Source: Bacteroidota bacterium (lineage in GTDB: Bacteria; Bacteroidota; Bacteroidia; Bacteroidales; JAAUTT01). From it: DNA of 64,000 nt. Location of the stretch: positions 7,614-71,613 of the forward strand of contig JAIFLU010000027.1 in assembly GCA_020048915.1 (NCBI GenBank), given 5' to 3'. The notes below the pieces were generated by a model. That model was not told the origin of the DNA. It searched no databases and worked only from the letters and a program-made list of their open reading frames with translations. This document shows positions 9,691-63,614 of this stretch, in pieces (position 1 is the first letter of the stretch; every line of letters starts with the position of its first letter). Both the position numbers and the translations under genes were made by a program.

Positions 9691-9699
9691 CTTTCTTTT

Positions 9700-22757: not shown

Positions 22758-22852
22758 ATTCTAAAATAGGGCAATTCAAAATCTAATAAACTGCACATTA
22801 TTAACCGATTTACTCTGGTCATAGAAAAAGTAGAACCTAAATAACCCAAGAT

Positions 22853-24586: not shown

Positions 24587-24604
24587 GGAAAGGGAAATGG
24601 AGGA

Positions 24605-24744: not shown

Positions 24745-24783
24745 TTTTCAGGGTATATCAATTTAATGTCAACAACACCACCA

Positions 24784-26646: not shown

Positions 26647-26653
26647 CTTCAAA

Positions 26654-26860
26654 ATGAGAAAGATACTACTGCTTTTAACTTTACTCTTTGCTTGTTCTGC
26701 TTTGTTTTCGCAAGTCTGGACTTACCGGACAGGTCCCGATACGCTGAAAAACAGATCGTATTATGCTTACCTGTGGATTCCGGAAACTGCAGCCAAAGGC
26801 ATCAGAGGGTTGATACTTGCCCCGCAAATCTCCGCCGAATGGCAGTTTATTAAATACTGA
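26654..26860 (+). CDS. 68-aa signal-peptide ORF, possibly a remnant of a truncated gene
   Basis: MRKILLLLTLLFACSALFSQ followed by only 48 residues. Squeezed between two enzyme genes. Confidence 0.3.
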   Translation: MRKILLLLTLLFACSALFSQVWTYRTGPDTLKNRSYYAYLWIPETAAKGIRGLILAPQISAEWQFIKY

Positions 26861-26885
26861 AACCGTACTCTTACACATTAGTTAT

Positions 26886-29111
26886 ATGAAAAAATTGTTT
26901 ACTATCCTGCTTCTAAGCTTCATAATTGGAAATTCCAATGCGCAGCCATGGTCGGATAAAACTTATCCCGATGAAAATGGGTATCAACAACGCATCAAGG
27001 GGGTGTTGCCCAAAATTGCAGCCAAAGGATTTGGAATTCGTAGCCTGGCCGTTTCGAAATGTCCCGATACTGGTTTGCCTGTAAGGGTGTGGGCTGTGGA
27101 AGGCGACGATATTATTTCCCCTTATACCGGACGTAAATACAAACAAGGCTCTACCGATTATTTCGGACCGAAAGCGAGGAACGAAAAGGGCGAAATCTCC
27201 GCTTTTGGAGGCGATCCGCTGAAATACGATCTGCCACCGGCTACTGCAACGTTGCTGCTCAATCCCGAAAATGCAGCAGCCAGGGCATTCCTGAGTATAC
27301 CGGGAAACCTGCGGCAGCAATACCATTTTGCCTGTAAAAACTGGGCCAGGTTTTATCCGCTATTAGCTGATCAAATGAGCGAACAATGGAGATCGGATTT
27401 CTGGAGCCATGTGGCCTCGTATGCCGAAGGCAGAAGGCCCTCGGATGGACCAAGTCGCGAATGGCTTACATTAACAAACAAGCATAACCTGGTGGGACAA
27501 CCCGGTCAGCTCCTGGGTGGCAACCCGCTCGACGGAGGCACCGAAAACCACAAAACCATGTGGCGAACCAGCGGTTTGCTGTATTCGCAGATTTTACCCG
27601 ACACATGCCGGGTTTCAGGCTATCCGGCCAAAGAAGCCGAAAAACTCACCAAAGACATGATCCGTGATTACCTGAAAAGACTCCTCCTTACCGGAAATGG
27701 CGAATATGACTCTCAGATTTACTACCCGCACAGCATCGAAGGTTTTTTGAATCTCTACGACTTCTCACCCGATGAAGAAACTCGCCTTCTTGCCAAATTC
27801 GCACTCGATTATTATTTTGTCACCTACGGTTTGAAAGTTATCGACGGAACCATTGCTGGTGCCCAGAAAAGAGGTTACCTGGCCAATGGCATTGCCGGTG
27901 AAATGGAAACAATGCTTTGGGCCTATTTCAATAACACTTCGCGCGATATGAGCCGGGAAGTTCTCACCATTCAGCAGGCGACTACCAAATACCGGCCAAA
28001 TCAGGTAATTTACAATATCGCCAATAAAAATATTGCACTTCCTTTCGAAGCCCGTATGAGTCGTCCTTTTTACCATATGGACTATCCGCATGCTTTTGCC
28101 GAAACCTTTTATTGCAGCAATTCCTATGCGATGGGAAATATCCAGATGACCATTGTGGATAATCCTAACCAGCAGATGGTATGGTCGGTGGTTACCCGTG
28201 GGAAAGAAATGCCTTACTGTTTCAGCGGCGGACATCCGATGCGGGGCAGCACCTCCGGACACAGTCCTTATAATCAGACATTGCAGTCGAAAGGCACGCT
28301 TATTCTGCTTACAGCACCAACTCTAATTCCGGCACAACCCGACACTTCTATTGCCCCAACCTATTCAAAAGCTAAACGCGATAACTTGTGGCTTTTACCA
28401 AAAGAGGAGCAGGGAGATAACTTTGAGTTCAAAAACCGCATGAAATATGCTTCGAAAGAGCTGACCAGAATAAATCCTCCTGCTGATAATTCGCCCGCTG
28501 AAATAGAACGCTTCTGGAACGAAAGCAAAGGATCGGCAACTTCCTGGTTTTATTACCCAAAAAACTTGAGTCCTGTGGAGAAGGATGGCATTTTCTTTCT
28601 GGAAACAGAAACCATGCTTATGGCAGTGGTGCCTATATCTAAAGGAGGTTTTGTATGGGCTCCCAAAATTGCTAAAAATGGGAACTCCGAGTGGCACAAA
28701 TTTTTTAAAGATTATAGTATAATCGCATTTCCCGGAGAAGTTTCTGGATATGTGGTAGAAACGGCTGAAAAGTCTTCCTACGGAAGCATTGACAATTTTT
28801 GTCAGGCACTTCTCAGAAAGACAAACCTCGATCTTTCAAAGCTTTCGCAGGATAAGGAAATAATTTATACCAGTCTTTATGGCGAGAAGCTTAGGATGGT
28901 ATATAATCCTAATGGCCTGAGTTGTTCGGCCTGGATCAACGGTAAAAAGCAGGATTGGACTAATCACACCAACGGAGCCGTTTACGACAGCCCTTTTCTT
29001 AAAGTGAAAAACGGAATGATGAAAGTCTCGGATGGCAAAAACGCCTATGAGATAGATTTCCGTAAAGAGAAGCCCGATTTTAAAGTGTTAACCTCTCCCG
29101 TTTTAAAATAA
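26886..29111 (+). CDS. Secreted hypothetical protein of the PUL, family not recognised
   Basis: Start chosen at MKKLFTILLLSFIIGNSNAQ (26886) rather than the ORF-track start at 26817. 741 aa, no motif that I can assign. Confidence 0.6.
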   Translation: MKKLFTILLLSFIIGNSNAQPWSDKTYPDENGYQQRIKGVLPKIAAKGFGIRSLAVSKCPDTGLPVRVWAVEGDDIISPYTGRKYKQGSTDYFGPKARNEKGEISAFGGDPLKYDLPPATATLLLNPENAAARAFLSIPGNLRQQYHFACKNWARFYPLLADQMSEQWRSDFWSHVASYAEGRRPSDGPSREWLTLTNKHNLVGQPGQLLGGNPLDGGTENHKTMWRTSGLLYSQILPDTCRVSGYPAKEAEKLTKDMIRDYLKRLLLTGNGEYDSQIYYPHSIEGFLNLYDFSPDEETRLLAKFALDYYFVTYGLKVIDGTIAGAQKRGYLANGIAGEMETMLWAYFNNTSRDMSREVLTIQQATTKYRPNQVIYNIANKNIALPFEARMSRPFYHMDYPHAFAETFYCSNSYAMGNIQMTIVDNPNQQMVWSVVTRGKEMPYCFSGGHPMRGSTSGHSPYNQTLQSKGTLILLTAPTLIPAQPDTSIAPTYSKAKRDNLWLLPKEEQGDNFEFKNRMKYASKELTRINPPADNSPAEIERFWNESKGSATSWFYYPKNLSPVEKDGIFFLETETMLMAVVPISKGGFVWAPKIAKNGNSEWHKFFKDYSIIAFPGEVSGYVVETAEKSSYGSIDNFCQALLRKTNLDLSKLSQDKEIIYTSLYGEKLRMVYNPNGLSCSAWINGKKQDWTNHTNGAVYDSPFLKVKNGMMKVSDGKNAYEIDFRKEKPDFKVLTSPVLK

Positions 29112-43631: not shown

Positions 43632-45593
43632 ATGTCGGATGTAAAACAAAAATTATTCAGTGAATTTCCACCAGTTAGTACTGCCGATTGGGAGGCCAAA
43701 ATTACGGCCGACCTCAAAGGTGCCGACTATGAGAAAAAGCTGATATGGAAAACAAACGAAGGCATTAAAGTGAAGCCCTACTATAGGGCCGAAGACCTTC
43801 AAAATCTCGGATACCTTGGGACGAATCCGGGAGAATTTCCTTTTATTAGAGGAAAAAAGACTGCAAATAACGAATGGTATATTCGCCAGGATATTGTAGT
43901 TACGAACCTAGAAGGTGCTAATAAAAAAGCACTTGAGGTTTTGGGCAAGGGAATTACATCCTTATGCTTTGTATTTAAAAAGGGCACAGAAATAAATAAA
44001 CAAAGCCTTTCAACTCTTTTACATAATATTTGCTTAAGTGCCATTGAAATTAATTTCGCTGGTCACAAATCAAATGAAGTTGCAGAATTATTTCTACAAT
44101 ATCTGAAAGAGAAATCGTATGATAACGCTATTGAAGGATCGGTAAATTTTGATCCGCTTGGCCGTCTCTGCAAGAAAGGGAATTTTTGTTGCGATTCACT
44201 GGAAAAGTCCGTTGAAGAAGTTGCAAAACTTATGAAGGCTACTTCACATCTTCCAAATTTTCGGACTGTTGCTGTTCATGGAGTTCATTTTGCCAATGCC
44301 GGCGCCAGTGTCATCCAGGAGTTAGCTTTCGCTTTATCCATGGGGGCTGAGTATTTGAATCTGGTAACTGAAAAAGGAATTTCCCCCTCTCAGGCTGCTT
44401 CCAAAATAAAATTCAATTTTGGGGTAAGTGCTAATTATTTTATGGAGATTGCCAAGTTTCGCGCTGCCCGGTTGCTTTGGTCAAAAATTGTTGAAGCATA
44501 CGATGCTTCTTGCAAAGTGCCGATGCATATTCATGCCGAAACCGCAAAATGGAATCTTACCATGTACGATTCGTATGTGAATTTGCTTCGGACTACCACC
44601 GAAGGAATGTCGGCTGCTATTGCCGGTGTTGATTCATTAACCATTCTTCCGTTCGATGTTACATTTGAAGAGCCTACGGACATTGCCGAGCGTATTGCCC
44701 GTAATCAACAGATCGTTCTCAAAGAGGAAGCTTATTTCGATAAAATTGTAGATCCATCTTCCGGTTCATATTATATCGAAAACCTTACCGATGCTATTAT
44801 TACCGAAGCTTGGAAACAATTTCTCGAAGTTCAGGGAAAAGGTGGATTTGTTGCTGCTTTTAAAGAAGGATTTATTCAGACAAAAGTAAAAGAAGTTGCT
44901 CAAAAGCGGGATTTAGCAATAGCTACCCGTCGCGAAATTGTTTTAGGAACGAATCAATATCCCAATACCAAGGAAATTCTTACCGTAAAACCTTGCGATC
45001 AAACTGCTGCTTGCTGTTGTACATGTTCTAAAGACGGAAAATGTGAATGTGGTCAGGATTGCTGTTGTGGTGACAAAAATTGTAATTGCGATTGCCAGGA
45101 AGGGAAATGCGATTGTAGCTGCTGCGACGACAGCAAACGGGTTGCTGAGCCTTTAAAACTTTATCGTGGTGCTAACGCTTTTGAAAAATTGCGTTTAAAA
45201 ACCGATTTTGCAAATCGTCGCCCTAAAGTTTTTATGCTAACAATTGGTAGTTTATCCATGCGTTTAGCCCGTTCTCAATTCTCCGGAAACTTTTTTGGAT
45301 GTGCAGGCTTCGAAATTATCGATAATAATGGCTTTAAAACCATCGACGAAGGCGTTAAAGCTGCTTTTGATGCAAAAGCTGATATTGTTGTTCTTTGCAG
45401 TAGCGACGATGAATATGTGAATTTTGCTCCTGAAGCATTTGAGAAACTAGGTGGTAAAGCTATTTTGGTTGTTGCCGGCGCTCCGGCTTGCCAGGCCGAA
45501 CTTGAAGCGAAAGGAGTTAAAAACTTCATTAGTGTGAAGTCGAACGTACTGGAAGTACTGAAGTTTTATCAAAGCGAACTGAATATAAACTAA
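43632..45593 (+). CDS. mutA: Methylmalonyl-CoA mutase small (beta) subunit with a Cys-rich insert
   Basis: Lies directly upstream of mutB. Mutase-barrel homology (FEEPTDIAERIARNQQIVLKEE...DPSSGSYYIE). The C-terminal flavodoxin-like domain lacks the DxHxxG cobalamin motif, as expected for MutA. Confidence 0.85.
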   Translation: MSDVKQKLFSEFPPVSTADWEAKITADLKGADYEKKLIWKTNEGIKVKPYYRAEDLQNLGYLGTNPGEFPFIRGKKTANNEWYIRQDIVVTNLEGANKKALEVLGKGITSLCFVFKKGTEINKQSLSTLLHNICLSAIEINFAGHKSNEVAELFLQYLKEKSYDNAIEGSVNFDPLGRLCKKGNFCCDSLEKSVEEVAKLMKATSHLPNFRTVAVHGVHFANAGASVIQELAFALSMGAEYLNLVTEKGISPSQAASKIKFNFGVSANYFMEIAKFRAARLLWSKIVEAYDASCKVPMHIHAETAKWNLTMYDSYVNLLRTTTEGMSAAIAGVDSLTILPFDVTFEEPTDIAERIARNQQIVLKEEAYFDKIVDPSSGSYYIENLTDAIITEAWKQFLEVQGKGGFVAAFKEGFIQTKVKEVAQKRDLAIATRREIVLGTNQYPNTKEILTVKPCDQTAACCCTCSKDGKCECGQDCCCGDKNCNCDCQEGKCDCSCCDDSKRVAEPLKLYRGANAFEKLRLKTDFANRRPKVFMLTIGSLSMRLARSQFSGNFFGCAGFEIIDNNGFKTIDEGVKAAFDAKADIVVLCSSDDEYVNFAPEAFEKLGGKAILVVAGAPACQAELEAKGVKNFISVKSNVLEVLKFYQSELNIN

Positions 45594-45712: not shown

Positions 45713-47845
45713 ATGAAACCAGATTTTAGTAAAATAAATGTTAAAACAGGCAGCAGTCCGACGAAAGTGAAGTCGGATTCTAACTGGACCACAGCCGAGC
45801 AAATAGCTGTGAAACCAGTTTATACTGCCGATGATTTGCTCGGAATGGAGCATCTCAATTATGCTGCCGGAACAGCGCCCTTTTTGCGCGGTCCATACAG
45901 CACCATGTATGTTATGCAGCCCTGGACTATTCGCCAATATGCCGGATTTTCCACAGCCGAAGAATCGAATGCCTTTTATCGCCGTAACCTGGCTTCTGGT
46001 CAGAAGGGCCTTTCTGTAGCATTCGACCTTGCTACACACCGTGGTTACGATAGCGATCATGAACGTGTACTTGGTGATGTTGGAAAAGCTGGTGTAGCCA
46101 TCGACTCTATCCTCGACATGAAGGTATTGTTCGATCAGATTCCACTCAACAAAATGTCCGTTTCCATGACCATGAACGGTGCTGTGTTGCCAATTATGTC
46201 TTTCTATATTGTTGCTGCTCTCGAACAAGGTGCTAAGCTCGAAGAGTTAACTGGTACCATTCAGAACGATATTTTAAAAGAGTTTATGGTGCGAAACACA
46301 TACATCTATCCTCCGGAAATGAGTATGCGTATCATTGGTGATATTTTCGAGTATACTTCGAAATTCATGCCTAAGTTCAACAGCATTAGTATATCCGGAT
46401 ATCATATGCAGGAAGCCGGTGCTACAGCTGATATCGAATTAGCCTATACATTGGCCGACGGTTTGGAGTACTTACGTACCGGAACCAAAGCCGGGTTAGG
46501 AATCGATGCTTTTGCTCCCCGTCTTTCATTCTTCTGGGCAATTGGAATGAACCATTTTATGGAAATTGCCAAAATGCGTGCTGCCCGTTTATTGTGGGCG
46601 AAAATTGTGAAAAAGTTCGACCCAAAGTCCGAAAAATCGATGGCACTCCGTACGCACTCGCAAACTTCGGGTTGGAGCTTAACGGAGCAAGATCCTTTTA
46701 ATAATGTTGCCCGTACATGTATAGAGGCAATGGCCGCAGCTTTAGGTCATACGCAATCGTTGCACACCAATGCATTGGATGAAGCAATTGCTCTTCCAAC
46801 TGATTTTTCAGCGCGTATAGCCCGTAATACCCAAATTTACATTCAGGAAGAAACCAATATCTGTAAAGCGGTAGATCCCTGGGCTGGCTCATATTATGTG
46901 GAGTCGCTTACTCAGGAACTGGCCGAAAAAGCATGGAAACTCATTGAGGAAGTAGAAGAACTCGGTGGCATGTCGAAAGCCGTCGAAACTGGGATTCCGA
47001 AAATGCGCATTGAAGAAGCTGCCGCCCGCAAACAGGGGCGTATCGATAGCGGTCGCGATACCATTGTTGGTGTTAACAAACACCGGTTGGAAAAGGAAGA
47101 TCCAATTGATATTTTAGATGTTGACAATGCCGCCGTTCGCGAATCGCAAATTAAACGTTTACAAAAACTAAGGGCAGAACGAAATAATGCTGAAGTTCAG
47201 GCAGCTTTGGAAGCTATTACTGAAGCAGCTCGTACCGGAAAAGGTAACTTGCTGGAACTATCAGTTATTGCTGCTCAAAAGCGTGCATCGCTTGGTGAAA
47301 TTTCCGATGCCATTGAAAAAGTTGCTGGGAGGTACAAAGCTGTGATTAGAAGTATATCCGGAGTTTATGCAAGTGAGTCTTCGCAGGATGAAGACTTTAT
47401 TGCTGCCCGTGAGCTTTGCGAAAAGTTTGCAAAGCAGGAAGGCCGTCAACCACGTATTATGATTGCCAAAATGGGGCAGGATGGTCACGACCGTGGCGCA
47501 AAGGTAGTTTCAACAGGATATGCCGATTTAGGTTTCGATGTAGATATTGGCCCGCTGTTCCAGACCCCTGCCGAAGCTGCTAAACAAGCTGTTGAGAACG
47601 ATGTGCATGTCTTGGGCGTTTCATCACTGGCAGCCGGTCATAAAACACTCGTACCAGCAGTTATGGAAGAGCTGAAAAAACTAGGCAGGGAAGATATCAT
47701 GGTAATTGCCGGTGGGGTTATACCTGCGCAGGATTACGATTATCTTTACAAAGCCGGAGTTGTAGCAATCTTTGGACCTGGAACTTCTGTTTCGAAAGCA
47801 GGAAGGAAGATTCTCGAAATTTTACTGGAAGCATTTAAAGCATAA
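45713..47845 (+). CDS. mutB: Methylmalonyl-CoA mutase large (alpha, cobalamin-binding) subunit
   Basis: [43 protein letters not shown], and the B12 motif [13 protein letters not shown]. Confidence 0.95.
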
Positions 47846-47865: not shown

Positions 47866-47896
47866 AGGCCGTTCATTTTTTGGACGGCCTTTTTTA
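47866..47896 (+). terminator. Rho-independent terminator after mutB
   Basis: AGGCCGT(T)C-attttttg-GACGGCCT followed by TTTTTT. Confidence 0.75.
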
Positions 47897-48497
47897 TTTA
47901 GAAAAGCAATTTATTACAGATAATTAGAAATAGATTGACCTAATAATCTAAAATTGATTTTATTTAATCTGTAATTTGGATCATTCGTTGGATATTCAGC
48001 AATCCTTTCTGCAAATAATCAATATGCAGCATTAAGGAAATATATGATAACCCATAAGACCACTATGGCTACAAAATTTAAAAGTCTTTCCTTCATTCTG
48101 ATTCAATTTAGGATTTGAATATATAGATGGTTAAAAATGCAAAAGGTTGCATTGGAAATTAAAAAAATTTAAATTTTTTTTAAATAAATTAACGTAAGCT
48201 TATATAAATTATTGTTTTGTCCAATCTATTAAACATTTAAGAAAAACTGCAATTCAAAAATTCATTATTTTTCTTGATAAATATTACTGTAATTAAATTA
48301 TTAAAAATTTTCAAACCCTAAATTTTTGTTTTTTATACGTTAAAAAAATAGTATTACTTGTTAGCATGCATATTAAGCGGATGTTAAGATTCATTAACTA
48401 TTATATCTATTTTAGTAATATATCCCTCCAAATTCTATCCCAAACATTTCTACCTTTCCAAAAAAATCCCAATTTTGCATTTCATTAATTGCTTTTC

Positions 48498-48791
48498 ATG
48501 AAAACGTTTCCCGAATTAACATTGCAAACCATAGTACAACGTAATCCTAAGCTCATTGCCAACCAAATGGATGGTGAAATTGTGATGATGAGTATTGATA
48601 ACGGCGAATATTATGGCTTAGACGAAATAGGCAGTCGAATTTGGGAATTGATGGAAATGCCCATTTCTATTGCTAAATTGACAGATACTTTATTAGTAGA
48701 ATTTGAAGTGGATCGGGATGAATGTTTAAGTGATACAATAGATTTTTTGAAAGATTTGCAGGAAAAAAATCTTTTATTAATTAATGAATGA
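48498..48791 (+). CDS. PqqD-family peptide-binding protein (RRE; lasso B1-like)
   Basis: RNPKLIANQMDGEIVMMSIDNGEYYGLDEIGSRIWELMEMPISIAKLTDTLLVEFEVDRDECLSDTIDFLKDLQEKNLL is a typical PqqD/RRE pattern. The stop overlaps the next start (ATGA at 48788). Confidence 0.8.
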   Translation: MKTFPELTLQTIVQRNPKLIANQMDGEIVMMSIDNGEYYGLDEIGSRIWELMEMPISIAKLTDTLLVEFEVDRDECLSDTIDFLKDLQEKNLLLINE

Positions 48792-49213
48792 ATTTGTTAG
48801 CGAAATATTTTCACCTTCCGAAACAGGAGAAATTAATGTTGCTAAGAGCTTTTGAGATATCCCTCATAGCAAAGGCTCTGGTCACTTTTTTTCCGATACG
48901 GTGGTACAAAAAATTTCTTGAAACGAATACCAATCAATCACCTTCTCTGGAGGCCGACGAAAAAATACGATTAGTTACTATGGCCGTTAACCGATGCAGT
49001 CGATTTGCCCCCTGGAAAACAAAATGTTTGGTTGATGCAATCACCGCTAAACTTCTACTTCGAAAGTATAGAATAGGAGCAACCCTTTTTTTAGGAGTAT
49101 CGAAACAAGGGGTTACCAAACTTCAAGCTCATGCCTGGCTCAAAGTTGGCGAAAAATTTATTACAGGAAAACGGGGGCATCAAAATTTCACAGTTGTTTC
49201 GAGTTTTACCTGA
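48788..49213 (+). CDS. Transglutaminase-like cysteine protease of the lasso-peptide B2 (McjB C-terminal) type
   Basis: KCLVDAITAKLLLRKYRIGATLFLGV...LQAHAWLKVGEKFITG, with Cys and His in the spacing typical of the Transglut_core3 / B2 family. Confidence 0.75.
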   Translation: MNLLAKYFHLPKQEKLMLLRAFEISLIAKALVTFFPIRWYKKFLETNTNQSPSLEADEKIRLVTMAVNRCSRFAPWKTKCLVDAITAKLLLRKYRIGATLFLGVSKQGVTKLQAHAWLKVGEKFITGKRGHQNFTVVSSFT

Positions 49214-49240: not shown

Positions 49241-49867
49241 TTGAAGCATTATATAAAGCAATTAATCGACTCGGGCGAAAGCCAAACACTCGATTTTAAA
49301 TTTGAGGTTTCTGATTCCCGCAAAATTGCAAAGACTTTTGTAGCATTTGCAAATACCGATGGCGGTATTTTGTTAATTGGAGTAAAGGATAATGGTTCAA
49401 TAGCCGGGGTGCGATCGGAAGAAGAATATTATATGGTGGACGGGGCAGCTAAAATGTATTGTAAACCGGAAGTTTCATTTCAATCGCGCAAATGGAATAT
49501 CGAAGGTAAAACTGTACTCGAAATTACTATTCCTAAAAGTTCTGGTAAACCTCATTATACGTTGACTGAGGATAAAAAATGGATGGTTTACATTCGGGTT
49601 GGAGATCAGAATCTGTTGGCAAACAGTATCCTGCTAAAAGTGTGGCGGTATAAAAAGGAAAACCAATCCATCTACCTTGAGTACTCCAAAACTGAAAAAG
49701 TACTTCTCGAATACCTTGAAAGAGAGCAAAACATAACAATGTCAAAATTTTCTAAAATAGCCTTAATAACGCACAAAGAGGCAGAAAATGTTTTGGTGAA
49801 ATTGATTTCACTAAATTTAATAGAGATTGTTTTTACTGAGAAGCAAGTGTTCTACAAATTACCTTAA
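49241..49867 (+). CDS. AlbA_2 (Schlafen-like, putative nucleic-acid-binding) domain protein with a C-terminal winged-helix-like region
   Basis: ESQTLDFKFEVSDSRKIAKTFVAFANTDGGILLIGVKDNGSIAGV. Starts at TTG. Confidence 0.65.
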   Translation: MKHYIKQLIDSGESQTLDFKFEVSDSRKIAKTFVAFANTDGGILLIGVKDNGSIAGVRSEEEYYMVDGAAKMYCKPEVSFQSRKWNIEGKTVLEITIPKSSGKPHYTLTEDKKWMVYIRVGDQNLLANSILLKVWRYKKENQSIYLEYSKTEKVLLEYLEREQNITMSKFSKIALITHKEAENVLVKLISLNLIEIVFTEKQVFYKLP

Positions 49868-55135: not shown

Positions 55136-55996
55136 ATGACAATAACCAATCAGGATTTACAGATATTTATTAATGCGATAAAAACTTCATCGAATTACGA
55201 TTTCAGTGAATATTCCGATAAATCCCTGAAGCGGAGGTTAGCTAAAGTTTTGATCGATTACAAGATGGAGATTAGTGGCTTAATCTCTCAATTAAAGGGA
55301 AATAACACATTTCTTGAGCAGGTTGTTAAAGATGTTACTGTAAACACTACCGAGTTATTTCGCGATCCTAATATCTGGCAGATCCTAAAATATCACGTAC
55401 TCCCCAAATTTAAAAACCAATCAAGCATAAACATTTGGCATGCTGGATGTTCAACGGGGCAAGAAGTATATTCTTTACTAATGTTGTTGCATGAGCTTGA
55501 TTTATTCGAAAAGTCAAAAGTATATGCAACCGATCTAAACAACGACGTTCTCCAGGTTGCTAAAAAAGGAGTTTATAAATATCGGTTTAATATTAATTAT
55601 CTCGACAACTTCGATAAATCGATGAAGGAGAATCCATATAATTATGAAGAGTATAATGAGATTCCGTATGAAAAATATTTTACCATTGATAAATCGAAAG
55701 ATATTATTAAAATGAACCAGTTTTTGTTGGATAAACCAATCTTTAAAAAGCATGATTTAGTAAAAGATGGAAATATTTTTTATGTGAAGTTCGATTTAAT
55801 TCTTTGTCGGAATGTAATTATATATTTTAATTATGAACTTCAAAATAAGGTTTTTGATTTGTTCTATAATAACCTTTATCCCAATGGATATCTACTTTTA
55901 GGTATGCACGAGTCTATACTGGGACCCTATGCTTCCCGCTTCGATAAAATGGGACAGTTTTATCAGAAAAAGGAGATGTTTACCTATATGCCATAA
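55136..55996 (+). CDS. cheR: CheR-type protein-glutamate O-methyltransferase (copy 1)
   Basis: CheR_N-like helices (SEYSDKSLKRRLAKV), TELFRDPNIW, SAM motif INIWHAGCSTGQEVYSLLMLL, and DLILCRNVIIYFN. Confidence 0.8.
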   Translation: MTITNQDLQIFINAIKTSSNYDFSEYSDKSLKRRLAKVLIDYKMEISGLISQLKGNNTFLEQVVKDVTVNTTELFRDPNIWQILKYHVLPKFKNQSSINIWHAGCSTGQEVYSLLMLLHELDLFEKSKVYATDLNNDVLQVAKKGVYKYRFNINYLDNFDKSMKENPYNYEEYNEIPYEKYFTIDKSKDIIKMNQFLLDKPIFKKHDLVKDGNIFYVKFDLILCRNVIIYFNYELQNKVFDLFYNNLYPNGYLLLGMHESILGPYASRFDKMGQFYQKKEMFTYMP

Positions 55997-56153
55997 CTTA
56001 AATTCGAATTTTGAATAATGAATGCATCATGTTTCATGAACATTTTTAATATATTTAGAAGTTTTTCTTTGGTATTGTCTCAATTTCCATAATTATTAAT
56101 TATGAAAAAAGCATGGAGAGTATACATTTTGTTAATATTTAGACAACTGGTAA

Positions 56154-58850
56154 ATGATTAAGGCATTCAGCTCCATAAAAGCCAAACTGGCAGCAATTAT
56201 TAGTATAATTATTGCCCTTTTTGCAGTTTCATATATCATGGTTTATAATAGCATGTATTACTCCCAGGATGCTATTAAACAGTCTGTTAACCTGAAATAT
56301 CTCCGACTGTATCCTGAAATGCTTCAAAGCCAGCTCAATACGTTACTGCAGAAAGAGATTTTAGAGACCGCTATTTATCAAACGGAGGTTAGTACTGCAT
56401 TAGATTCAATGATTCGTATAAGAAAAAACCATGTAAAGCTGCTTGATACAATATTTTACTCGCATTATCTCCGGAAAAAAGAGCTTCTTGGTCAGTCGAA
56501 AGGAATTAGAATTGAATTGGCTAAGTTTATTAATGGCAATGAATTGCTGTTTAAACAACTTTTGGAACGCGGGTCCTTAACAACTGGAAAAGCTGGAGAA
56601 TGGAACCGGCAAGGCGATTTTATTGAAAACTATTTTTCGGTATTAAAAAATCCTGTTTTATTAAAATCCTGGATAGATATTCGCAAGCACGAATTTAAAT
56701 ATTGCTTACTGCACGATCCAATTTCTTTTGAAGAATTGGCGAAAAGCGCTACTTTACTGAAATCGAATTTAGCTTCAAAGGCACCTGATCTTACAAGGTC
56801 AGTTTCGGAAGGCGATAGGTTAAGAAGCGATGCAGAGATTGGAAAATATTTGGAACTCGCCTTTTCAGTTCGTGGAAAAGATAAATCGATCGGTATTGGA
56901 ACCAATCAAGGAATAATTGGCAATCAATTATTCCAACTAGCCATTATCTCGGAAAAATGCAATTTACTTAGCCAAAACCTGGAGAAGCAATTAAATTCGT
57001 TTATTTTCAATCAGTTTTTATTACGAATATTTACATTATTATTTCTTACTGTAATTGTTTTATATTTCATATCAAGCTGTTACAGAAATATTCAACGTTC
57101 TATCTCTGGCATAATCAATTATCTTCTGGAATTAGTGCAGGGAAAGCTCCCTGAGCCTATAACCTTAGAATCCAAAGATGAGTTAAAAAGGATTTCAGAA
57201 TTAATTGGAGAGTTTGTTTTAAGTATTCGGGGGAAAGTTAAATTTGCCCAGCATCTTGGTAAAGGAACGAATAATCAGGAGCTAGTGCCTTTGAGTAAGG
57301 ATGATACATTAGCAAATGCTTTGTTGGAACTGCAAGTAAGTTTGAAGAAAGCTTCCGAAGAAGATGCCAAATATAAAATTGAAGAAAAGAAAAGGGCATG
57401 GTCTAATGAAGGATTGGCAAAATTTATTGAAATACTCCGGTATCAAACCACAAGTATTGATGAGTTATCCGATTTAATTATTAAAAACCTGGTAAAATAC
57501 CTGAATGCTAATCAAGGAGGTATTTTTGCTTATTTTGACGATATTCCGGAAGATCAACATCTTGAATTGGTTTCTGCTTTTGCGTTTGATCGTAAAAAAC
57601 ATCTGCAAAAGCGGGTGGAGATTGGCGAAGGCCTTGTGGGGACATGTGCTCAGGAAAAACTTACGATCTATATGACCGATATTCCTGCTGAATATATTTC
57701 AATAACTTCTGGACTTGGAGAAGCAACTCCCCGTAGCTTGCTTATTATCCCTTTAAAAACAGAAGATGCGATATATGGAATACTCGAGATTGCTTCCTTT
57801 AATATTTTGGAACCTCACGAAATTGAATTCGTGGAGAAATTAGCCGAAAGTATTGCATCAACATTTGCTTCGTTAAAAATTAACGTTCATACTTCAAAAC
57901 TGCTTGAACAATCGAAAAAACAAGCAGAAGAAATGGCACAGCAGGAAGAAGAAATGCGCCAAAACCTCGAAGAGCTACAGGCAACACAGGAAGAATCGGA
58001 CAGGCGTGAAGCTGAAATTTTAAGTATTGTCGGAGCTATCGATCTCTCCTCCGTGGTTATGGAATTAGATATGGATGGAAAAATAATTGAAATCAACAAA
58101 AAATATTGCTCCGTAATCAATTGTCATAAGGAAGATTTATTTGGAAAAAACCTTCGTGCAATTTGCTATTTCGATCCTCAAACGGATGATTACAATTACC
58201 TGATTTCGGAACTTCGTAATGGACGAAGTATGGTTCGTGAAGAAGAGGTTCATTTTAACAACAAACAATATTATTTTACACAGAATTACAGTCCTATTTT
58301 CGACAAAGACCGAAATCCTTATAAAATACTTTTAATTGCATCTAATAATTCAGATAAGATTCACCTAAGTGCTAATTTGTCAGAGCTGAACACTAAGCTT
58401 GTTTCGAGTGAAAACCAGTTAAGCAGCCTCAATGATGTGCTCGACAAGGCTCTTATGGTTGCCGAGCTAACTCCGGATGGAACCATCATAAATACAAACA
58501 AAAATTACCTGGAAGTTACTGGTTATCTTCAAAATGAAGTACTAGAAAAAAACGCCAGGTTTTTCCTGAAAGCGGAAGAACTGCGACAATTTGAATTAAT
58601 TTGGGCTGAAGTTGAAAAAGGAAAAGTTCATCAGGGCGTAGTGCGCAGAACCAAACCTACAGGAGAAGAATATTGGCTTATGTCAGCAGCTATTCCCGTA
58701 ACAGATAATAATGGACTGATTCTAAAAGTATATTTTATTGGCCAGGATATTACAGAAAAGAAATTGAAATATCAGGTTCTCGAAGAGGCGAATAAAGAAA
58801 TTGAGCGGCTAAAGAATCTGTATGAAAAAAATAACAAAGAACAAATATAA
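56154..58850 (+). CDS. Membrane sensor: TM, ~270-aa extracytoplasmic domain, TM, HAMP-like linker, GAF, Glu/Gln-rich coiled coil, 2 PAS; no recognisable output domain
   Basis: TM segments AAIISIIIALFAVSYIMVY and LLRIFTLLFLTVIVLYFISS. GAF (GEGLVGTCAQEKLTIYMTDIPAEYISITSGLGEATPRSLLIIPL). Coiled coil LLEQSKKQAEEMAQQEEEMRQNLEELQATQEE. PAS-like blocks (DGKIIEINKKYCSV..., DGTIINTNKNYLEVTGY...GEEYWL). Confidence 0.75.
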   Translation: MIKAFSSIKAKLAAIISIIIALFAVSYIMVYNSMYYSQDAIKQSVNLKYLRLYPEMLQSQLNTLLQKEILETAIYQTEVSTALDSMIRIRKNHVKLLDTIFYSHYLRKKELLGQSKGIRIELAKFINGNELLFKQLLERGSLTTGKAGEWNRQGDFIENYFSVLKNPVLLKSWIDIRKHEFKYCLLHDPISFEELAKSATLLKSNLASKAPDLTRSVSEGDRLRSDAEIGKYLELAFSVRGKDKSIGIGTNQGIIGNQLFQLAIISEKCNLLSQNLEKQLNSFIFNQFLLRIFTLLFLTVIVLYFISSCYRNIQRSISGIINYLLELVQGKLPEPITLESKDELKRISELIGEFVLSIRGKVKFAQHLGKGTNNQELVPLSKDDTLANALLELQVSLKKASEEDAKYKIEEKKRAWSNEGLAKFIEILRYQTTSIDELSDLIIKNLVKYLNANQGGIFAYFDDIPEDQHLELVSAFAFDRKKHLQKRVEIGEGLVGTCAQEKLTIYMTDIPAEYISITSGLGEATPRSLLIIPLKTEDAIYGILEIASFNILEPHEIEFVEKLAESIASTFASLKINVHTSKLLEQSKKQAEEMAQQEEEMRQNLEELQATQEESDRREAEILSIVGAIDLSSVVMELDMDGKIIEINKKYCSVINCHKEDLFGKNLRAICYFDPQTDDYNYLISELRNGRSMVREEEVHFNNKQYYFTQNYSPIFDKDRNPYKILLIASNNSDKIHLSANLSELNTKLVSSENQLSSLNDVLDKALMVAELTPDGTIINTNKNYLEVTGYLQNEVLEKNARFFLKAEELRQFELIWAEVEKGKVHQGVVRRTKPTGEEYWLMSAAIPVTDNNGLILKVYFIGQDITEKKLKYQVLEEANKEIERLKNLYEKNNKEQI

Positions 58851-58852
58851 AA

Positions 58853-59671
58853 ATGGCAGAGATCGGGATTGTTGATACAAGGAATATCATCAAACTGATT
58901 CAGGAAAAATACGCCTGCGATTTTTCCGACTATGCGTTAACATCATTCAAACGCAGGTTGGAGAATATATTGCTTGTCCGAAACCTGAAGCATCCTGAAA
59001 TTCTAATGAGTAAAATAAAAGAGGATAGGAATTTTTACGATAAATTTCTCGATGAAATTGCCGTTCCATCATCTGAAATGTTTAGGGACCCTTCCTTATG
59101 GCGATTATTACGCGATGAAACAATCCCAAAGCTTTATCAAGAAACCCCCAATTTTAAAATTTGGTTGCCTGGCGTAGTTTCGGGTGATGAGCTTTTTTCT
59201 TTGTGCATTACTCTAAAGGAACTTAATTTGTTGGACAAAATACACGTTCATGTTAGCAGTTTGAGCAATTTTAGTTTGGAGTCGATTAAAAAAGGATATT
59301 TAAAAGCATCGAAAGTTGAAGTAAGTGAAGAAAATTATGTAAGGGCAAATGGTAAAGAGAATTTTACCAAATATTATAAGGAGGTAGGCGGTAATTTTTT
59401 ACGCGATACCAGTTTACTGGACAATGTGACTTTTGAACTTCAAAATATTGAAATGGATAATGCTCCTTCCGGAGTGAGGCTTATTATCTACCGAAACAAA
59501 ATGGTTTATTTTAACCCAACATTGCAACTAAAAATATTAAAAGTTTTTAATAGCAGTTTACAACCAAATGGGTATTTAATTATTGGGGTGAAAGAATTTT
59601 TAGGAAATTTATATAATGTTAACGACTTTTCCCTTGTTAATCCAAGCGAAAGTATTTATAAAAAGAAATAA
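58853..59671 (+). CDS. cheR: Divergent CheR-type methyltransferase (copy 2)
   Basis: SDYALTSFKRRLENIL, SEMFRDPSLW, FKIWLPGVVSGDELFSLCITL and RLIIYRNKMVYFN. Same architecture as copy 1, with an altered glycine-rich motif. Confidence 0.7.
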   Translation: MAEIGIVDTRNIIKLIQEKYACDFSDYALTSFKRRLENILLVRNLKHPEILMSKIKEDRNFYDKFLDEIAVPSSEMFRDPSLWRLLRDETIPKLYQETPNFKIWLPGVVSGDELFSLCITLKELNLLDKIHVHVSSLSNFSLESIKKGYLKASKVEVSEENYVRANGKENFTKYYKEVGGNFLRDTSLLDNVTFELQNIEMDNAPSGVRLIIYRNKMVYFNPTLQLKILKVFNSSLQPNGYLIIGVKEFLGNLYNVNDFSLVNPSESIYKKK

Positions 59672-59673
59672 GA

Positions 59674-60231
59674 ATGTACAAGGCAATAGTGATAGGTGGT
59701 TCAGCAGGAAGTTTCCAGGTCGTTACCCGGATACTTAGCAGCTTTTCACCAAACTTCAACATGCCTGTCTTTCTTAGCTTACATAGGTTAAAACATGTAA
59801 GGTCTGGTTTTCTTGAAGCATTAACAATGAAATCGAAAATACCCATTATTGAACCAAACGACAAGGAACAAATAAAACCAGGGAAAGCATATCTTGCCCC
59901 GGCAAATTATCATATGTATATTGAACTCGGAAACCGAATTGCTCTTTCGACTGAAGAACCTGTTCATCATTCACGGCCTTCTATCGATTTGTCATTTATA
60001 ACGGCTTCGAATGTATATCGCGAAAAATTAATCGGCATTATTCTTTCGGGAGCAAATCATGATGGGGCTTATGGTCTGAAAAAAGTGCAAGAAAATGGAG
60101 GATTGACTATCGTTCAGAATCCCAAAGATTGCCAGGTTACTACTATGACTGAAGCTGCCATTAGCCTTGCAAAAATTGATCATGTTTTTTCTATCGACCA
60201 AATGGCCGATTTTATTTCAAAACTTAAATAA
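59674..60231 (+). CDS. cheB: Stand-alone CheB-type methylesterase catalytic domain (no receiver domain)
   Basis: AIVIGGSAGSFQVV (Ser region), HHSRPSIDLSF and ILSGANHDGAYGLKKVQENGGLTIVQNP (Asp region). 185 aa. Confidence 0.75.
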   Translation: MYKAIVIGGSAGSFQVVTRILSSFSPNFNMPVFLSLHRLKHVRSGFLEALTMKSKIPIIEPNDKEQIKPGKAYLAPANYHMYIELGNRIALSTEEPVHHSRPSIDLSFITASNVYREKLIGIILSGANHDGAYGLKKVQENGGLTIVQNPKDCQVTTMTEAAISLAKIDHVFSIDQMADFISKLK

Positions 60232-60237
60232 AAAATT

Positions 60238-60999
60238 ATGCAATGGTTTAAAAATAAGATACTAGTTTATTCAATTATATACTTTTTTTATCTGGTATTT
60301 GTTTTCGTTGCTTTCGGAATGTGGTATAATCAAATTCTGGCAAACTCCTTGCAAGGTAACTGGCAAGTTGCTTTCCCGTTTATAATATCGGTGGTTCTGT
60401 CTTCTTTTTTATATTTGAGTCTAGTTCGTTCTGCTGCTTCAACTATTCAAATTGAAAAGGAGGATAAGGCATCTATTGTTTCTGAAGTAAATGAACTTGA
60501 AGATGTATACGAAGATAAATCCTTTGAAGAATTTAATAAAGAACAATTTATTGCTGCAATTATTCCTGGCGAAAGCACAGCATTGGTTGAGTATTGCGAA
60601 GGGTTATTAAAAAACCTTGCTACACAGCTCGAAATTGTACAAGGCATATTTTATTTGAAAGCGAAAGAAGAAAATACATACGATGCTGTGGCTAGTTACG
60701 CTTATTATAAAAATCAAACTCCGCCGGGTTTCGTTATAGGTGAGTCGCTAAACGGACAGGCACTTAAGGACAAACGAATTCTTATTGTTCAAAATATTCC
60801 GGAAGACTACATTTCCGTTGTATCGGGGTTAGGCAAAAGTAATCCAAAGTGTATTGTAATGCTTCCAATTGTATACAATAATGCCCCTGTTGGGCTAATT
60901 GAATTTGCGAGTTTTAAAGCTTTGGATTCAGTTTATGAATCTGCATTTAAGGAATTAAGTGGTGTAATTGGCGAAAATATTACTAAATTAACGAAATAA
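60238..60999 (+). CDS. Small membrane-anchored GAF-domain protein
   Basis: Two TM segments, an acidic linker, then a GAF domain (GESLNGQALKDKRILIVQNIPEDYISVVSGLGKSNPKCIVMLPI...GLIEFASF). Confidence 0.7.
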   Translation: MQWFKNKILVYSIIYFFYLVFVFVAFGMWYNQILANSLQGNWQVAFPFIISVVLSSFLYLSLVRSAASTIQIEKEDKASIVSEVNELEDVYEDKSFEEFNKEQFIAAIIPGESTALVEYCEGLLKNLATQLEIVQGIFYLKAKEENTYDAVASYAYYKNQTPPGFVIGESLNGQALKDKRILIVQNIPEDYISVVSGLGKSNPKCIVMLPIVYNNAPVGLIEFASFKALDSVYESAFKELSGVIGENITKLTK

Positions 61000-61001
61000 A
61001 T

Positions 61002-63614
61002 ATGCCGGTAAAAGTGTCCGACTTGCTTCAAAAATCTAAAACGCAGATAATTCTGGCTGGTATCATTTTAAGTGGTACTATACCTGTAATTGCCTGGATT
61101 TTAGAATTTCTCTCCAGTAATGTTGCTTTTGGTCTAACAGGATTAGGAATCATTCATCTGCAAAGTCCTTCATTATTTCTTATCGACCTGGTCCCATTTG
61201 CAGTTGGCTTATTTATATATTATTTTATTAGTTGGAACGAAAACGTCAGCCAAAAGAACAAAGAAAGTATTCAGGAACGCGACCATATTATTGCTCGCAA
61301 TGCTGAATTTGCTAAACATATTGGAGCTGGCGATTATACTACTCCTTTTGAAGTAGCTGATGAAGACGCTCTTGGAAAGTCGCTATTACTTATGCGTGAC
61401 AACTTATTACTCAATACGCGTAAGGAATCGGAGCAAAGTTGGATTGCAGCTGGGAAGGAACAAATTTCGACTATCCTTCGAAACTATAATAAAATAGACA
61501 AATTATCTTACGAGGTTATTGTTAGCCTTATCAAGTATTCAAATGCTGTGCAAGGCGCGCTTTATTTGTACAACGAAGAAAAGGAAGTTCTATCGAATGT
61601 TGCAACCTATGCATTTAACCGGAAAAAATATATATCTCAGGAATTTAATATTGGGCAAGGATTAATTGGTCAATGTGCCTACGAAATGGATATTATTTAT
61701 CGTACGGAGGTTCCTGACGATTATGTTACGATTACTTCTGGTATTATTGGCGACAAAAAACCTAAAAGTATTTTAATTCTTCCGCTTATTTCTGACGAAA
61801 AATTATTGGGGGTTATGGAATTTGCCTTTTTATTGGAGGAAATTCCTGAAATAACCATCCAGTTTCTTAAAGAACTTGGCGAAATTATTGCACGTACCAT
61901 CTTTAATTTACTCATAAACCAAAAGACTGAAAAGCTTCTTGAGGAATCCCGGCAAATGACCCAGGAACTTCAGGAAAACGAAGAGCAGCTTCGGCAAAGC
62001 GCTGAAGAAATGCGGGCTACCCAGGAAGAACTGCAACGATCGAATGAAAAACTTGGTACTCAAATACACGAAGTTGAAAATGCTCAAAAGCGGCTACATT
62101 CTTTGCTGGAGAATGCTTCTGAGATTATTTATATTTACGACGAAAACATTGAACTTAAATACATTTCACCTTCGGTAATAAGCATATTAGGATTTGCTCC
62201 TGAAGAAATGATGAAAGGGAAGGATTTGGACCGCCTTACTCGTAAGGGAGAATCCGAAATGAAGAATATGTTTAATCAACTTATTCAAAATCCTGAAGAA
62301 TCCTTTACTATTCAATATACTTACATGAAAAAGGATGGTCAGAAGGTATTTCTCGAAACTACCGGGAGAAACTTGTTGAACGACCAGGCTATTCATGGAA
62401 TTATATTGAACACTCAGGATATTACAGAGCGTAAGCGTGCTGAAAAAGAGGAGCGCATGAAAAGTAAAATGCAAGCTCTTTCTGAAAATTCGCTCGACTT
62501 AATTATGCGGCTAAGTACTCATGGAATGTTTTTTTATTCGAATCCAATTGTTGAAGACTATATTGGTATAAAAAATACGGAATTACTCAACAAAAGCATC
62601 AATGATATTGTAATTCCCGATTCTTTGAAAGAATATTTCACCGGAATTTTGGTTGAAATTAAAAAAGCTCCGAGTAAAAAGAATAGTACTATTACAATAC
62701 CAATGCATCTTGGAGAAAAGGTGACAGAGCGAATTATCAGTTTTGATGCTATTCCTGAATTCAACGAGAACGAGTTAGAAACTGTACTTTTTGTAGGGCA
62801 CGATATTACCGAAGCTAAACGCATTGAGTTAGAAATCCAGGATAAAAATCGTAAGATTGAAGATAGTATAAATTACGCACAGCGCATTCAATCTGCTATT
62901 CTCCCCGATACCCGGTATATTCGCGAATATCTCCCCGAATCATTTATTCTCTATAAACCACGTGATGTGGTTAGTGGAGATTTTCCGTGGTTTTTCCGCC
63001 GTGACGATGTGCTGTATATTGCTGCAGTCGATTGTACGGGGCATGGTGTTCCAGGTGCATTGCTCTCGTTTATAGGCTATTTTATTTTGAATAACATAGT
63101 TGACCACGATAGAGACTATACCGCTTCCGAAGTATGCGACCTGCTGCATAATGGTGTTAGGACCACGCTTAAGCAAAACCGCGACGATGCTCAAGGACGC
63201 GATGGTATGGATATAGCCATTTGCAGAATCAATCTGAAGAAAAAGGAGCTTATGTATTGTGGAGCGCATAGGCCATTATATTTCTTACGGGGCGTTGAGC
63301 TTACCGAATATAAAGGAGATAGAAAAGCAATCGGAGGTATTCCTTTGGGAAATAAGCCGGAAAATAATTTTACAAATTATGTTATTCCTTTTGAAAAGGG
63401 CGATAAGGTATTTTTCTTTTCGGATGGATTGCCTGATCAATTAGGAGGCCCGAACGATAAAAAGTATTCTCCGGGTCGTATCCGTGAACAAATTGTAAAT
63501 AACAGTTCATTTTCGATGCAGGAATATTACGAGCAGTTCGATAAAGAATATTGGGAATGGAAAGGGAATAATAAACAAATTGATGATGTACTTTTAATTG
63601 GTATTGAATTTTAA
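61002..63614 (+). CDS. Membrane sensor phosphatase: TMs, HAMP-like linker, GAF, coiled coil, 2 PAS, PP2C/SpoIIE Ser/Thr phosphatase (SiaA-like)
   Basis: GAF (GQGLIGQCAYEMDIIYRTEVPDDYVTITSGIIGDKKPKSILILPL). Coiled coil LLEESRQMTQELQENEEQLRQSAEEMRATQEEL. PP2C motifs YAQRIQSAILPD, SGDFPWF, AAVDCTGHGVPGALLS, DGMDIAI and FFFSDGLPDQLGG. Confidence 0.8.
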   Translation: MPVKVSDLLQKSKTQIILAGIILSGTIPVIAWILEFLSSNVAFGLTGLGIIHLQSPSLFLIDLVPFAVGLFIYYFISWNENVSQKNKESIQERDHIIARNAEFAKHIGAGDYTTPFEVADEDALGKSLLLMRDNLLLNTRKESEQSWIAAGKEQISTILRNYNKIDKLSYEVIVSLIKYSNAVQGALYLYNEEKEVLSNVATYAFNRKKYISQEFNIGQGLIGQCAYEMDIIYRTEVPDDYVTITSGIIGDKKPKSILILPLISDEKLLGVMEFAFLLEEIPEITIQFLKELGEIIARTIFNLLINQKTEKLLEESRQMTQELQENEEQLRQSAEEMRATQEELQRSNEKLGTQIHEVENAQKRLHSLLENASEIIYIYDENIELKYISPSVISILGFAPEEMMKGKDLDRLTRKGESEMKNMFNQLIQNPEESFTIQYTYMKKDGQKVFLETTGRNLLNDQAIHGIILNTQDITERKRAEKEERMKSKMQALSENSLDLIMRLSTHGMFFYSNPIVEDYIGIKNTELLNKSINDIVIPDSLKEYFTGILVEIKKAPSKKNSTITIPMHLGEKVTERIISFDAIPEFNENELETVLFVGHDITEAKRIELEIQDKNRKIEDSINYAQRIQSAILPDTRYIREYLPESFILYKPRDVVSGDFPWFFRRDDVLYIAAVDCTGHGVPGALLSFIGYFILNNIVDHDRDYTASEVCDLLHNGVRTTLKQNRDDAQGRDGMDIAICRINLKKKELMYCGAHRPLYFLRGVELTEYKGDRKAIGGIPLGNKPENNFTNYVIPFEKGDKVFFFSDGLPDQLGGPNDKKYSPGRIREQIVNNSSFSMQEYYEQFDKEYWEWKGNNKQIDDVLLIGIEF

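Follow-up and report, generated by a model that had tools for sequence, protein, structure and literature searches.

A conserved lasso-type B1/B2 gene pair without a cyclase in Bacteroidales, a probable remnant of a paeninodin-type cluster

A stretch of 64,000 nucleotides of contig JAIFLU010000027.1 (positions 7,614 to 71,613, forward strand) from a Bacteroidota bacterium of the order Bacteroidales (assembly GCA_020048915.1) was analysed at its full length and is called the window below. It contains two overlapping plus-strand genes for the split B proteins of lasso peptide biosynthesis. B1 encodes a discrete recognition element (RRE) for peptides that ribosomes synthesize and that are post-translationally modified (RiPPs), and B2 encodes a lasso-type cysteine protease. 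Sequence comparisons suggest that the pair is a remnant of a paeninodin-type lasso cluster, kept in working order by selection at a site that has lost the cyclase and the precursor. B1 starts at the ATG at 48498 in an open reading frame (ORF) that itself opens upstream at a TTG (48489), and the ATG of B2 (48788-48790) overlaps the TGA of B1 (48789-48791) as an ATGA sequence. The gene upstream of B1 codes for methylmalonyl-CoA mutase (45713-47845; MM_CoA_mutase and B12-binding domains), and its terminator is the 5′ boundary of the B1/B2 transcription unit. The initial annotation, made from the sequence alone, had assigned the pair to the PqqD and Transglut_core3 families at these coordinates, with ATGA coupling at 48788, mutB upstream and an AlbA_2 gene downstream; the overlap is present, the Pfam and NCBIfam hidden Markov models (HMMs) support both family assignments, and Pfam supports both neighbours. 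The features of the locus are as follows.

47866-47890, plus strand: strong intrinsic terminator of the methylmalonyl-CoA mutase gene (10-bp stem with 6 GC pairs, then a T-run)
48457-48480, plus strand: promoter-like motif TCCAAAAAAATCCCAATTTTGCAT, the sole conserved block in an upstream alignment of 10 cyclase-less loci
48498-48791, plus strand: B1, discrete RRE of the PqqD family, 97 aa, paeninodin or WxxPxL-leader type
48788-49213, plus strand: B2, lasso-type transglutaminase-like cysteine protease, 141 aa, translationally coupled to B1
49241-49867, plus strand: AlbA_2 (Schlafen-type) and winged-helix protein, 208 aa (PF04326 at 2.3e-25)

B1 matches Pfam PqqD (PF05402) with an E-value of 1.4e-18 and 67.4 bits (cut-off 23.4), and the NCBIfam model NF033536 (lasso_PqqD_Bac, “lasso peptide biosynthesis PqqD family chaperone”) with 92.5 bits (cut-off 80). 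Its best solved relative is chain B of PDB entry 9x90 (E=2.5e-18), followed by TbiB1 (9e-13). The protein in 9x90 is PbaB1; it serves as RRE in a paeninodin-like lasso cluster and was crystallised with its WxxPxL leader, and the leader-pocket positions used for comparison were taken from this structure (PMC13381572). In PbaB1, the cleft residues holding the [W/Y]xxPxL motif are I44, L65, Y69 and V71; I48 and F83; and Y39, L41, L87 and L92 (PMC13381572). The window B1 keeps Y38, Y39, L41, I44, I48, L65, F69, V71, F83, L87 and L92, that is, the pockets for the leader W, P and L. These positions (with I or V at 44) are kept in all nine cyclase-less loci and are the same as in the B1 proteins of complete clusters. 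The differences between the window B1 and PbaB1, G42 to D and Q79 to D, are both common to several complete clusters. The window B1 thus has the sequence features for binding a [W/Y]xxPxL leader, and such binding can be predicted from them.

B2 matches Pfam Transglut_core3 (PF13471) with an E-value of 4.9e-23 and 81.7 bits (cut-off 26), and NCBIfam NF033537 (lasso_biosyn_B2, “lasso peptide biosynthesis B2 protein”) with 91.2 bits (cut-off 33). The Cys...His-A-W arrangement that had been read from the sequence holds up in the alignment of 23 homologues, in which Cys80 and His115-Ala-Trp (AHAWL) are invariant, and these residues align with those of the B2 proteins from 11 complete clusters, which carry the same Cys...AHAWL...(I/V)TG motif. 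In McjB-type enzymes, the third residue of the catalytic triad is an Asp after the catalytic His. No Asp is found at the aligned position in the window B2 (F(I/V)TGxxG), and the same is true of the B2 proteins of cyclase-bearing complete clusters. The missing Asp was considered as a mark of an inactive enzyme and rejected, because the B2 proteins of complete clusters share the motif; its lack appears to be a trait of the subfamily and not a lesion. An AlphaFold2 (AF2) model of B2 (pLDDT 84) gave no Foldseek match in the PDB at E<=0.001, just weak matches to vasohibins, and sequence searches of the PDB yielded no homologue of B2. The preserved features suggest that B2 would cleave a leader-core junction.

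The absence of a lasso cyclase near the pair, noted earlier for 5 kb on either side, extends to the whole 64 kb. HMMs were built from the cyclases (eight), HPr-kinase-like kinases, sulfotransferases and precursors of related complete clusters and were run against the six-frame translation of the window. The cyclase HMM, which scores 730-830 bits on the eight related clusters, matched neither the window nor any cyclase-less locus at E<=1. The kinase and sulfotransferase HMMs and tblastn with NTP_transf_5 found nothing in the window, and the sulfotransferase HMM gave no match in the cyclase-less loci either. The precursor HMM was built from the precursors of 10 complete clusters (in L020-L031, where the short contig L029 yielded none); it recovers these 10 source precursors and independently finds those of two further clusters that were not in the training set (L035 and L037). 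Neither this HMM nor a leader-only HMM gave a credible match in the cyclase-less loci or in the window. Relaxed HMM searches (E<=30, all frames, >=15 aa) for pseudogene remains of the cyclase, kinase and sulfotransferase in the upstream spacer and elsewhere returned only noise, and Pfam scans detected no RiPP enzymes among the other large ORFs of the window. Since the cyclase and the precursor were tested for and are absent, the locus falls outside the class of lasso peptide gene clusters. The paeninodin-type accessory genes for a kinase, a nucleotidyltransferase and a sulfotransferase are absent from the window as well.

The initial annotation had held that a split B1/B2 pair always works with a cyclase and had proposed a comparison of the neighbourhoods of cyclase-less pairs. 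The first statement is too strong in view of the cyclase-less family of linear polyphosphorylated peptides (LPPs; PMC13381572) and the B-independent cyclase PsmC (PMC6993621). The comparison was carried out and revealed a conserved cyclase-less family together with an orthologous complete cluster. With B2 as the query, a database search yielded 24 proteins that share 44-58 % identity with it, and all of them come from metagenomes or metagenome-assembled genomes (MAGs). In their genomic contexts (L001-L019), the genes for PqqD, Transglut_core3 and AlbA_2 always occur in tight succession, and no cyclase was detected by HMM within 10 kb. The gene upstream of the pair varies (methylmalonyl-CoA mutase, Epimerase_2, DUF305, a sigma factor or phosphotriesterase); the downstream region is largely syntenic, with DUF3108-like, GH1, biotin-lipoyl/OADA, LPG synthase, CheR, GAF-PAS, CheR and CheB genes. 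At least nine lineages, with B2 diverged to 41-58 % identity, have intact reading frames. Among the cyclase-less loci, the kinase HMM is positive only in L028, where the kinase gene is adjacent to the pair, and in L007, where it lies 6 kb away.

The ratio of nonsynonymous to synonymous substitution rates (dN/dS) was calculated from the sole pair of loci with unsaturated synonymous sites (L016/L017) and amounts to 0.11 for B1 (dS 0.57), 0.15 for B2 (dS 1.07) and 0.02 for AlbA_2. The sole conserved block upstream of B1 is the promoter-like motif, TCCAAAAAAAT..CA(A/T)TTTTG(C/T)AT, at 48457-48480. The start codon of B1 follows about 20 nt further on. In an intergenic blastn search, only a 28-nt stretch around this motif matched, in L016. 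The sequence CAATTTTG (48470-48477) resembles TAnnTTTG, which we take from the Bacteroides promoter consensus to be the Bacteroidetes -7 element. By this resemblance, B1 and B2 appear to have their own conserved putative promoter. Because the dN/dS values are low, the frames intact and the key residues and the promoter motif conserved, the pair is best regarded as held by purifying selection and functionally intact, with no sign of present decay. This bears on the idea that B1 and B2 are non-functional leftovers of a dead cluster on the way to loss and have no present role. All the other cluster genes are gone, and between L016 and L017 B2 (77 % identity) and B1 (87 %) evolve faster than AlbA_2 (96 %), as such a remnant would. 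The dN/dS values of 0.11-0.15 speak against it, as do the intact frames with translational coupling or tight spacing kept across at least nine lineages with saturated synonymous sites, the invariant catalytic and leader-pocket residues, and the conserved promoter motif; a pair without any function is thus very improbable. The “decaying cluster” suggested earlier is therefore apt as history, in the sense of a deletion remnant of a complete lasso cluster, and fails as a description of the present state.

Two short ORFs upstream of B1 had been pointed out earlier, with the remark that they lack an acidic acceptor residue. The 40-aa ORF (48366-48488) and the 24-aa ORF (48044-48118) do exist as open frames without such a residue, and both were rejected as precursor candidates on several grounds. 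Their only tblastn matches are in six contigs whose sequence is 100 % identical to that of the window. Neither contains a WxxPxL motif. The 40-aa ORF overlaps the promoter motif, and most of it lies upstream of the would-be transcription start. Other members of the family have just 85-130 nt upstream of B1: the gap to the upstream gene is 85 nt in L014 and about 130 nt in L007, which makes a conserved upstream precursor impossible. The spacer between the mutase terminator and B1 (650 bp; window 47900-48456) has a G+C content of only 20-25 % and contains a perfect 20-nt A/T palindrome at about 48161-48180. It has no conserved counterpart in the other loci, and an Rfam search for structured RNA returned nothing below E=0.8. 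The AT-rich spacer may be the scar of a deletion or rearrangement that took away the upstream cluster genes.

Wider relatives came from an alignment-based scan of GTDB genomes, where a scan with a single protein had found nothing. The alignment-based scan revealed homologues of B2 in several phyla, at 30-40 % identity. Among the wider loci, eleven (L020-L027 and L029-L031) hold an asparagine-synthetase-like cyclase of 620-650 aa, and a twelfth (L028) has none. Most of the 11 with enough flanking sequence also have an HPr-kinase-like kinase of about 300 aa, and a sulfotransferase is present in a few; not all of the 11 have B1 next to B2. In 10 of the 11, the exception being the short contig L029, in which no precursor was identified, there is a precursor of 43-59 aa that ends in Ser or Thr and has a W-x-x-P-x-L ... 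T-x leader. These features are hallmarks of the paeninodin/pseudomycoidin type (PMC8498205; PMC13381572).

A search with the Bacteroidales cyclase of one of these loci (L021) led to two further complete clusters, in the 4.6-Mb genome L035 and in L037 (GCA_020444275.1). In all three, the order is Wzy_C, (dCMP deaminase), Pur_DNA_glyco, Lipid_A_deac, TMEM260, Polysacc_deac_1, NTP_transf_5 and the Asn_synthase cyclase, followed divergently by the kinase, Sulfotransfer_1, PqqD, Transglut_core3 and a precursor of 48-49 aa, and then by a SprB-like protein. The ancestral cluster is thus laid out as two divergent operons, one with the nucleotidyltransferase and cyclase genes and the other with the kinase, sulfotransferase, B1, B2 and precursor genes. 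The cyclase-less locus L009 has the same left flank, with identities to L035 of 44 % for Wzy, 67 % for Pur_DNA_glyco, 32 % for Lipid_A_deac, 59 % for TMEM260 and 46 % for the deacetylase; this flank is followed by two unrelated genes and then by PqqD, B2 and AlbA_2, without the nucleotidyltransferase, cyclase, kinase, sulfotransferase and precursor. The Bacteroidales MAG locus L028 has TMEM260, the deacetylase, the kinase, PqqD, B2 and then the CheR/GAF-PAS block, without a cyclase or precursor. These loci suggest a deletion series from the full cluster through kinase-B1-B2 (L028) to B1-B2, and the window pair would be the remnant of a paeninodin-type lasso cluster that once occupied this chromosomal site in Bacteroidales. 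In a neighbour-joining tree of B1 and B2, the cyclase-less group sits with L028 and L021 with a support of 40/100 bootstraps. Because this support is weak, the relic argument rests mainly on synteny. In L021, B2 is separated from the precursor gene by two small ORFs of 136 aa and 104 aa that overlap each other (10588-11291); they look like a HEPN/nucleotidyltransferase (MNT) toxin-antitoxin-like pair, judging from N-terminal sequences read by eye only.

The same comparison bears on the possibility of a split but otherwise ordinary lasso pathway, in which the cyclase, perhaps with the nucleotidyltransferase, and the precursor are encoded elsewhere in the same genome and B1 and B2 act in trans in the production of a lasso peptide. 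The leader pocket of B1 and the catalytic residues of B2 are the same as in complete clusters, purifying selection implies an existing substrate, and a single rearrangement could part the two divergent operons of the ancestral cluster. Bacteroidales MAGs with an orphan cyclase and NTP_transf_5 also exist. At the orthologous locus, however, the five missing genes (cyclase, nucleotidyltransferase, kinase, sulfotransferase and precursor) look deleted rather than moved, as the deacetylase abuts the kinase in L028 and unrelated genes stand in their place in L009. No precursor lies near either orphan type, so that a third locus would be needed, and the NCBI accessions of the two orphan types belong to different MAGs; G+C content was uninformative as to a common genome. 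Among the matches listed in the metagenome scan, no cyclase comes from samples that hold the pair, and, again among the matches listed, most cyclase loci with enough flanking sequence have adjacent B1 and B2. A pathway divided in this way is possible and, on this evidence, rather unlikely.

The orphan cyclase loci are three in number (L036:10001-13050, L038:1158-3739 and L039:287-3348). In these Bacteroidales MAGs, a lasso-type cyclase and NTP_transf_5 stand alone between genes for an MFS transporter and DUF6272/SiaC, and the 10 kb around them (in L036, and in L038 and L039, which are shorter) contain no B1, B2, kinase or precursor. The dN/dS of the orphan cyclase is 0.22 (L038 vs L039), and its family comprises at least 10 cluster representatives at 63-68 % identity. 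The cyclase and NTP_transf_5 may make up the second half of a split pathway; alternatively, the cyclase may work independently of B proteins, as PsmC does. Lasso clusters of the B-less kind, together with PsmC and its independence of B, show that in paeninodin-type pathways the C function is separable from that of B1/B2 (Zyubko et al. 2019, PMC6993621). The orphan loci resemble these B-less clusters, and the window is their mirror image, with B1 and B2 and without C.

The gene for the AlbA_2 protein starts 27 nt after B2 on the same strand, with a gap of 1-30 nt in every cyclase-less locus. No terminator was found between B2 and AlbA_2, and AlbA_2 is probably co-transcribed with B1 and B2. This arrangement raises the possibility of a three-gene module, in which B1 and B2 process or sense a peptide controlling the AlbA_2/winged-helix protein as a putative DNA-binding regulator, or are themselves controlled by it. 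Consistent with such a module, the three genes are contiguous on one strand in all cyclase-less loci, though the upstream genes and some of the downstream genes differ. However, AlbA_2 orthologues of about 60 % identity occur without B1 and B2 in the complete genomes L032 and L034, and the 6.7-Mb genome L034 keeps the same downstream synteny (AlbA_2, DUF3108-like, CheR, GAF-PAS, CheR and CheB). Conversely, L028 has kinase-B1-B2 without AlbA_2. AlbA_2 as an obligate partner was rejected on the first of these grounds. Moreover, the AlbA_2 family has more than 6500 members, compared with 24 matches for the B2 group of the window, and AlbA_2 itself contains no WxxPxL motif. Because the orthologues without B1/B2 and the L028 arrangement both exist, AlbA_2 appears to be an ancestral neighbour that B1 and B2 came to abut and not a defining partner, which leaves a dedicated three-gene module improbable. 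An anti-phage defence system was also considered and rejected, as PADLOC had no match for either of the B proteins and only a weak one, to a Schlafen domain, for AlbA_2.

In known split B proteins, B1 binds the leader and hands it to B2, which cuts the leader-core junction (PMC8498205; PMC6993621). The window pair belongs to the same two families as the split proteins of paeninodin and pseudomycoidin biosynthesis (PadeB1/B2, PsmB1/B2 and PbaB1), with the same B1-then-B2 order and coupling, the same WxxPxL-type pocket as PbaB1 and the same Cys...HAW in B2. It is orthologous to the B1 and B2 of complete Bacteroidales clusters with a kinase, a sulfotransferase and a nucleotidyltransferase. Unlike paeninodin-type clusters, the window has no cyclase, precursor, kinase, sulfotransferase, nucleotidyltransferase or transporter in the locus or in the 64 kb, and its pair has its own putative promoter and stands together with the unrelated AlbA_2 gene. 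The reading that we favour, with a probability of roughly 45 %, is a cyclase-independent role, in which the pair would act as an RRE-guided leader peptidase on a substrate encoded outside the locus and the product would be linear. According to this scheme, the nucleotidyltransferase, cyclase, HPr-kinase-like kinase, sulfotransferase and precursor genes would have been lost, and the genes for leader binding and leader cutting would have been kept as a working unit. Transcription would begin at the dedicated promoter just upstream of B1 and probably run into AlbA_2. The hydrophobic cleft of B1 would bind a [W/Y]xxPxL motif in the leader of the substrate and present it to B2, the Cys80/His115 active site of which would cut where leader and core are joined. 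The substrate would be encoded elsewhere, and a linear peptide would be released, phosphorylated in those relatives that keep the kinase.

The lean towards a linear product comes from the apparent loss of the cyclase and precursor genes at the orthologous site, the survival of kinase-B1-B2 in L028 and L007, and the LPP precedent. Both L028 (8724-10429) and L007 (3327-4232, with B1/B2 at 9670-10384) keep an intact HPr-kinase-like lasso kinase, which scores 383 and 322 bits, respectively, on the kinase HMM. A kinase, an RRE and a peptidase without a cyclase would follow the logic of the LPPs of Bacillota. LPP clusters evolved from paeninodin-type clusters, contain no cyclase and yield linear polyphosphorylated peptides (Popov et al. 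2026, PMC13381572). Like them, the window locus is a cyclase-less offshoot of the paeninodin type with a discrete RRE predicted to recognise a [Y/W]xxPx[L/V] leader and a putative leader peptidase, and L028 and L007 share the HprK-like kinase as well. The likeness ends there: LPP clusters have a SpI-like signal peptidase, an HprK-like kinase, an NTP transferase, an MsbA-like transporter and local precursors with YxxPxVL leaders, and of these the window has only the RRE (Pfam within 10 kb, and the kinase HMM). In addition, the window B1 is far closer to the lasso RRE PbaB1 (2.5e-18) than to LppB (9x8z_B, E=0.58), and LPP clusters belong to Bacillota, a different phylum from that of the window. 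The window locus is not an LPP cluster. A bolder and more tentative extension, to which we give distinctly less weight, is that a Bacteroidales lineage may have turned B1 and B2, together with the kinase in L028 and L007, into a cyclase-independent maturation system that makes a linear and, where the kinase is present, phosphorylated peptide from a WxxPxL precursor whose gene lies elsewhere. It would be a second, independent cyclase-less offshoot of paeninodin-type clusters, analogous to LPP clusters with B2 as the peptidase.

Several points weigh against a cyclase-independent role. Compared with true lasso clusters, neither the pocket of B1 nor the active site of B2 has changed, which is equally expected for a lasso pathway operating in trans. 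The orphan cyclase and nucleotidyltransferase loci of other Bacteroidales MAGs (L036, L038 and L039) are under purifying selection and are a possible complementary half. No substrate was found for the pair in a search that spanned 64 kb of a 269-kb contig, so that a distant cyclase and precursor are possible. Finally, the tree support for vertical descent from a complete cluster is weak, and the dN/dS values come from one unsaturated pair only.

The rest of the window was surveyed with Pfam. The remaining large ORFs form a polysaccharide-utilisation locus (ECF sigma factor, FecR, SusC, SusD, GH88, GH10, GH28 and GH42) and a CheR/CheB/GAF-PAS block. In or beside the polysaccharide-utilisation locus, six large ORFs (381-770 aa; window 21612-29111 and 9700-13498) have no Pfam match at E<=1e-5. 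The second block (55136-63614) encodes CheR, a GAF/PAS sensor (898 aa), CheR, CheB, a GAF protein and a PAS/GAF-SpoIIE phosphatase. It resembles a methylation module of the chemotaxis type, for which no receptor is evident; the CheR/GAF-PAS block downstream of the pair is kept in all related Bacteroidales loci and is present in L034 without B1 and B2 too. Upstream of the mutase gene, a plus-strand gene (43632-45593) encodes a methylmalonyl-CoA mutase small-subunit-like protein with a 46-residue insert containing 17 cysteines (44994-45131) between its two domains. The insert, CDQTAACCCTCSKDGKCECGQDCCCGDKNCNCDCQEGKCDCSCCDD, looks metallothionein-like, which is unusual for the methylmalonyl-CoA mutase small-subunit family.

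Lasso B1 and B2 are usually taken as markers of lasso peptide production, and genome-mining tools call loci such as this one lasso clusters or discard them. Of the discrete lasso RRE matches in RRE-Finder, about half lack a peptidase and a cyclase (PMC7470986). In contrast to those orphan RREs, the window RRE is accompanied by a bona fide B2, and the origin of the pair can be followed back to a specific cluster that was deleted. In the literature searched, we found no report of a conserved B1 and B2 pair without a cyclase that is traceable to a deleted cluster. At this locus, a conserved pair that appears to be under purifying selection has outlived its own cyclase and precursor at a traceable site. 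Should the pair work without a cyclase, B2 peptidases guided by an RRE would act outside lasso biosynthesis, and environmental Bacteroidales would make an unrecognised peptide product. If instead it works in trans with the orphan cyclase and nucleotidyltransferase loci, it would provide a clear case from nature of a split lasso pathway, with a bearing on how cluster boundaries are drawn. Either way, the putative deletion series would illustrate the piecewise dismantling of a RiPP cluster.

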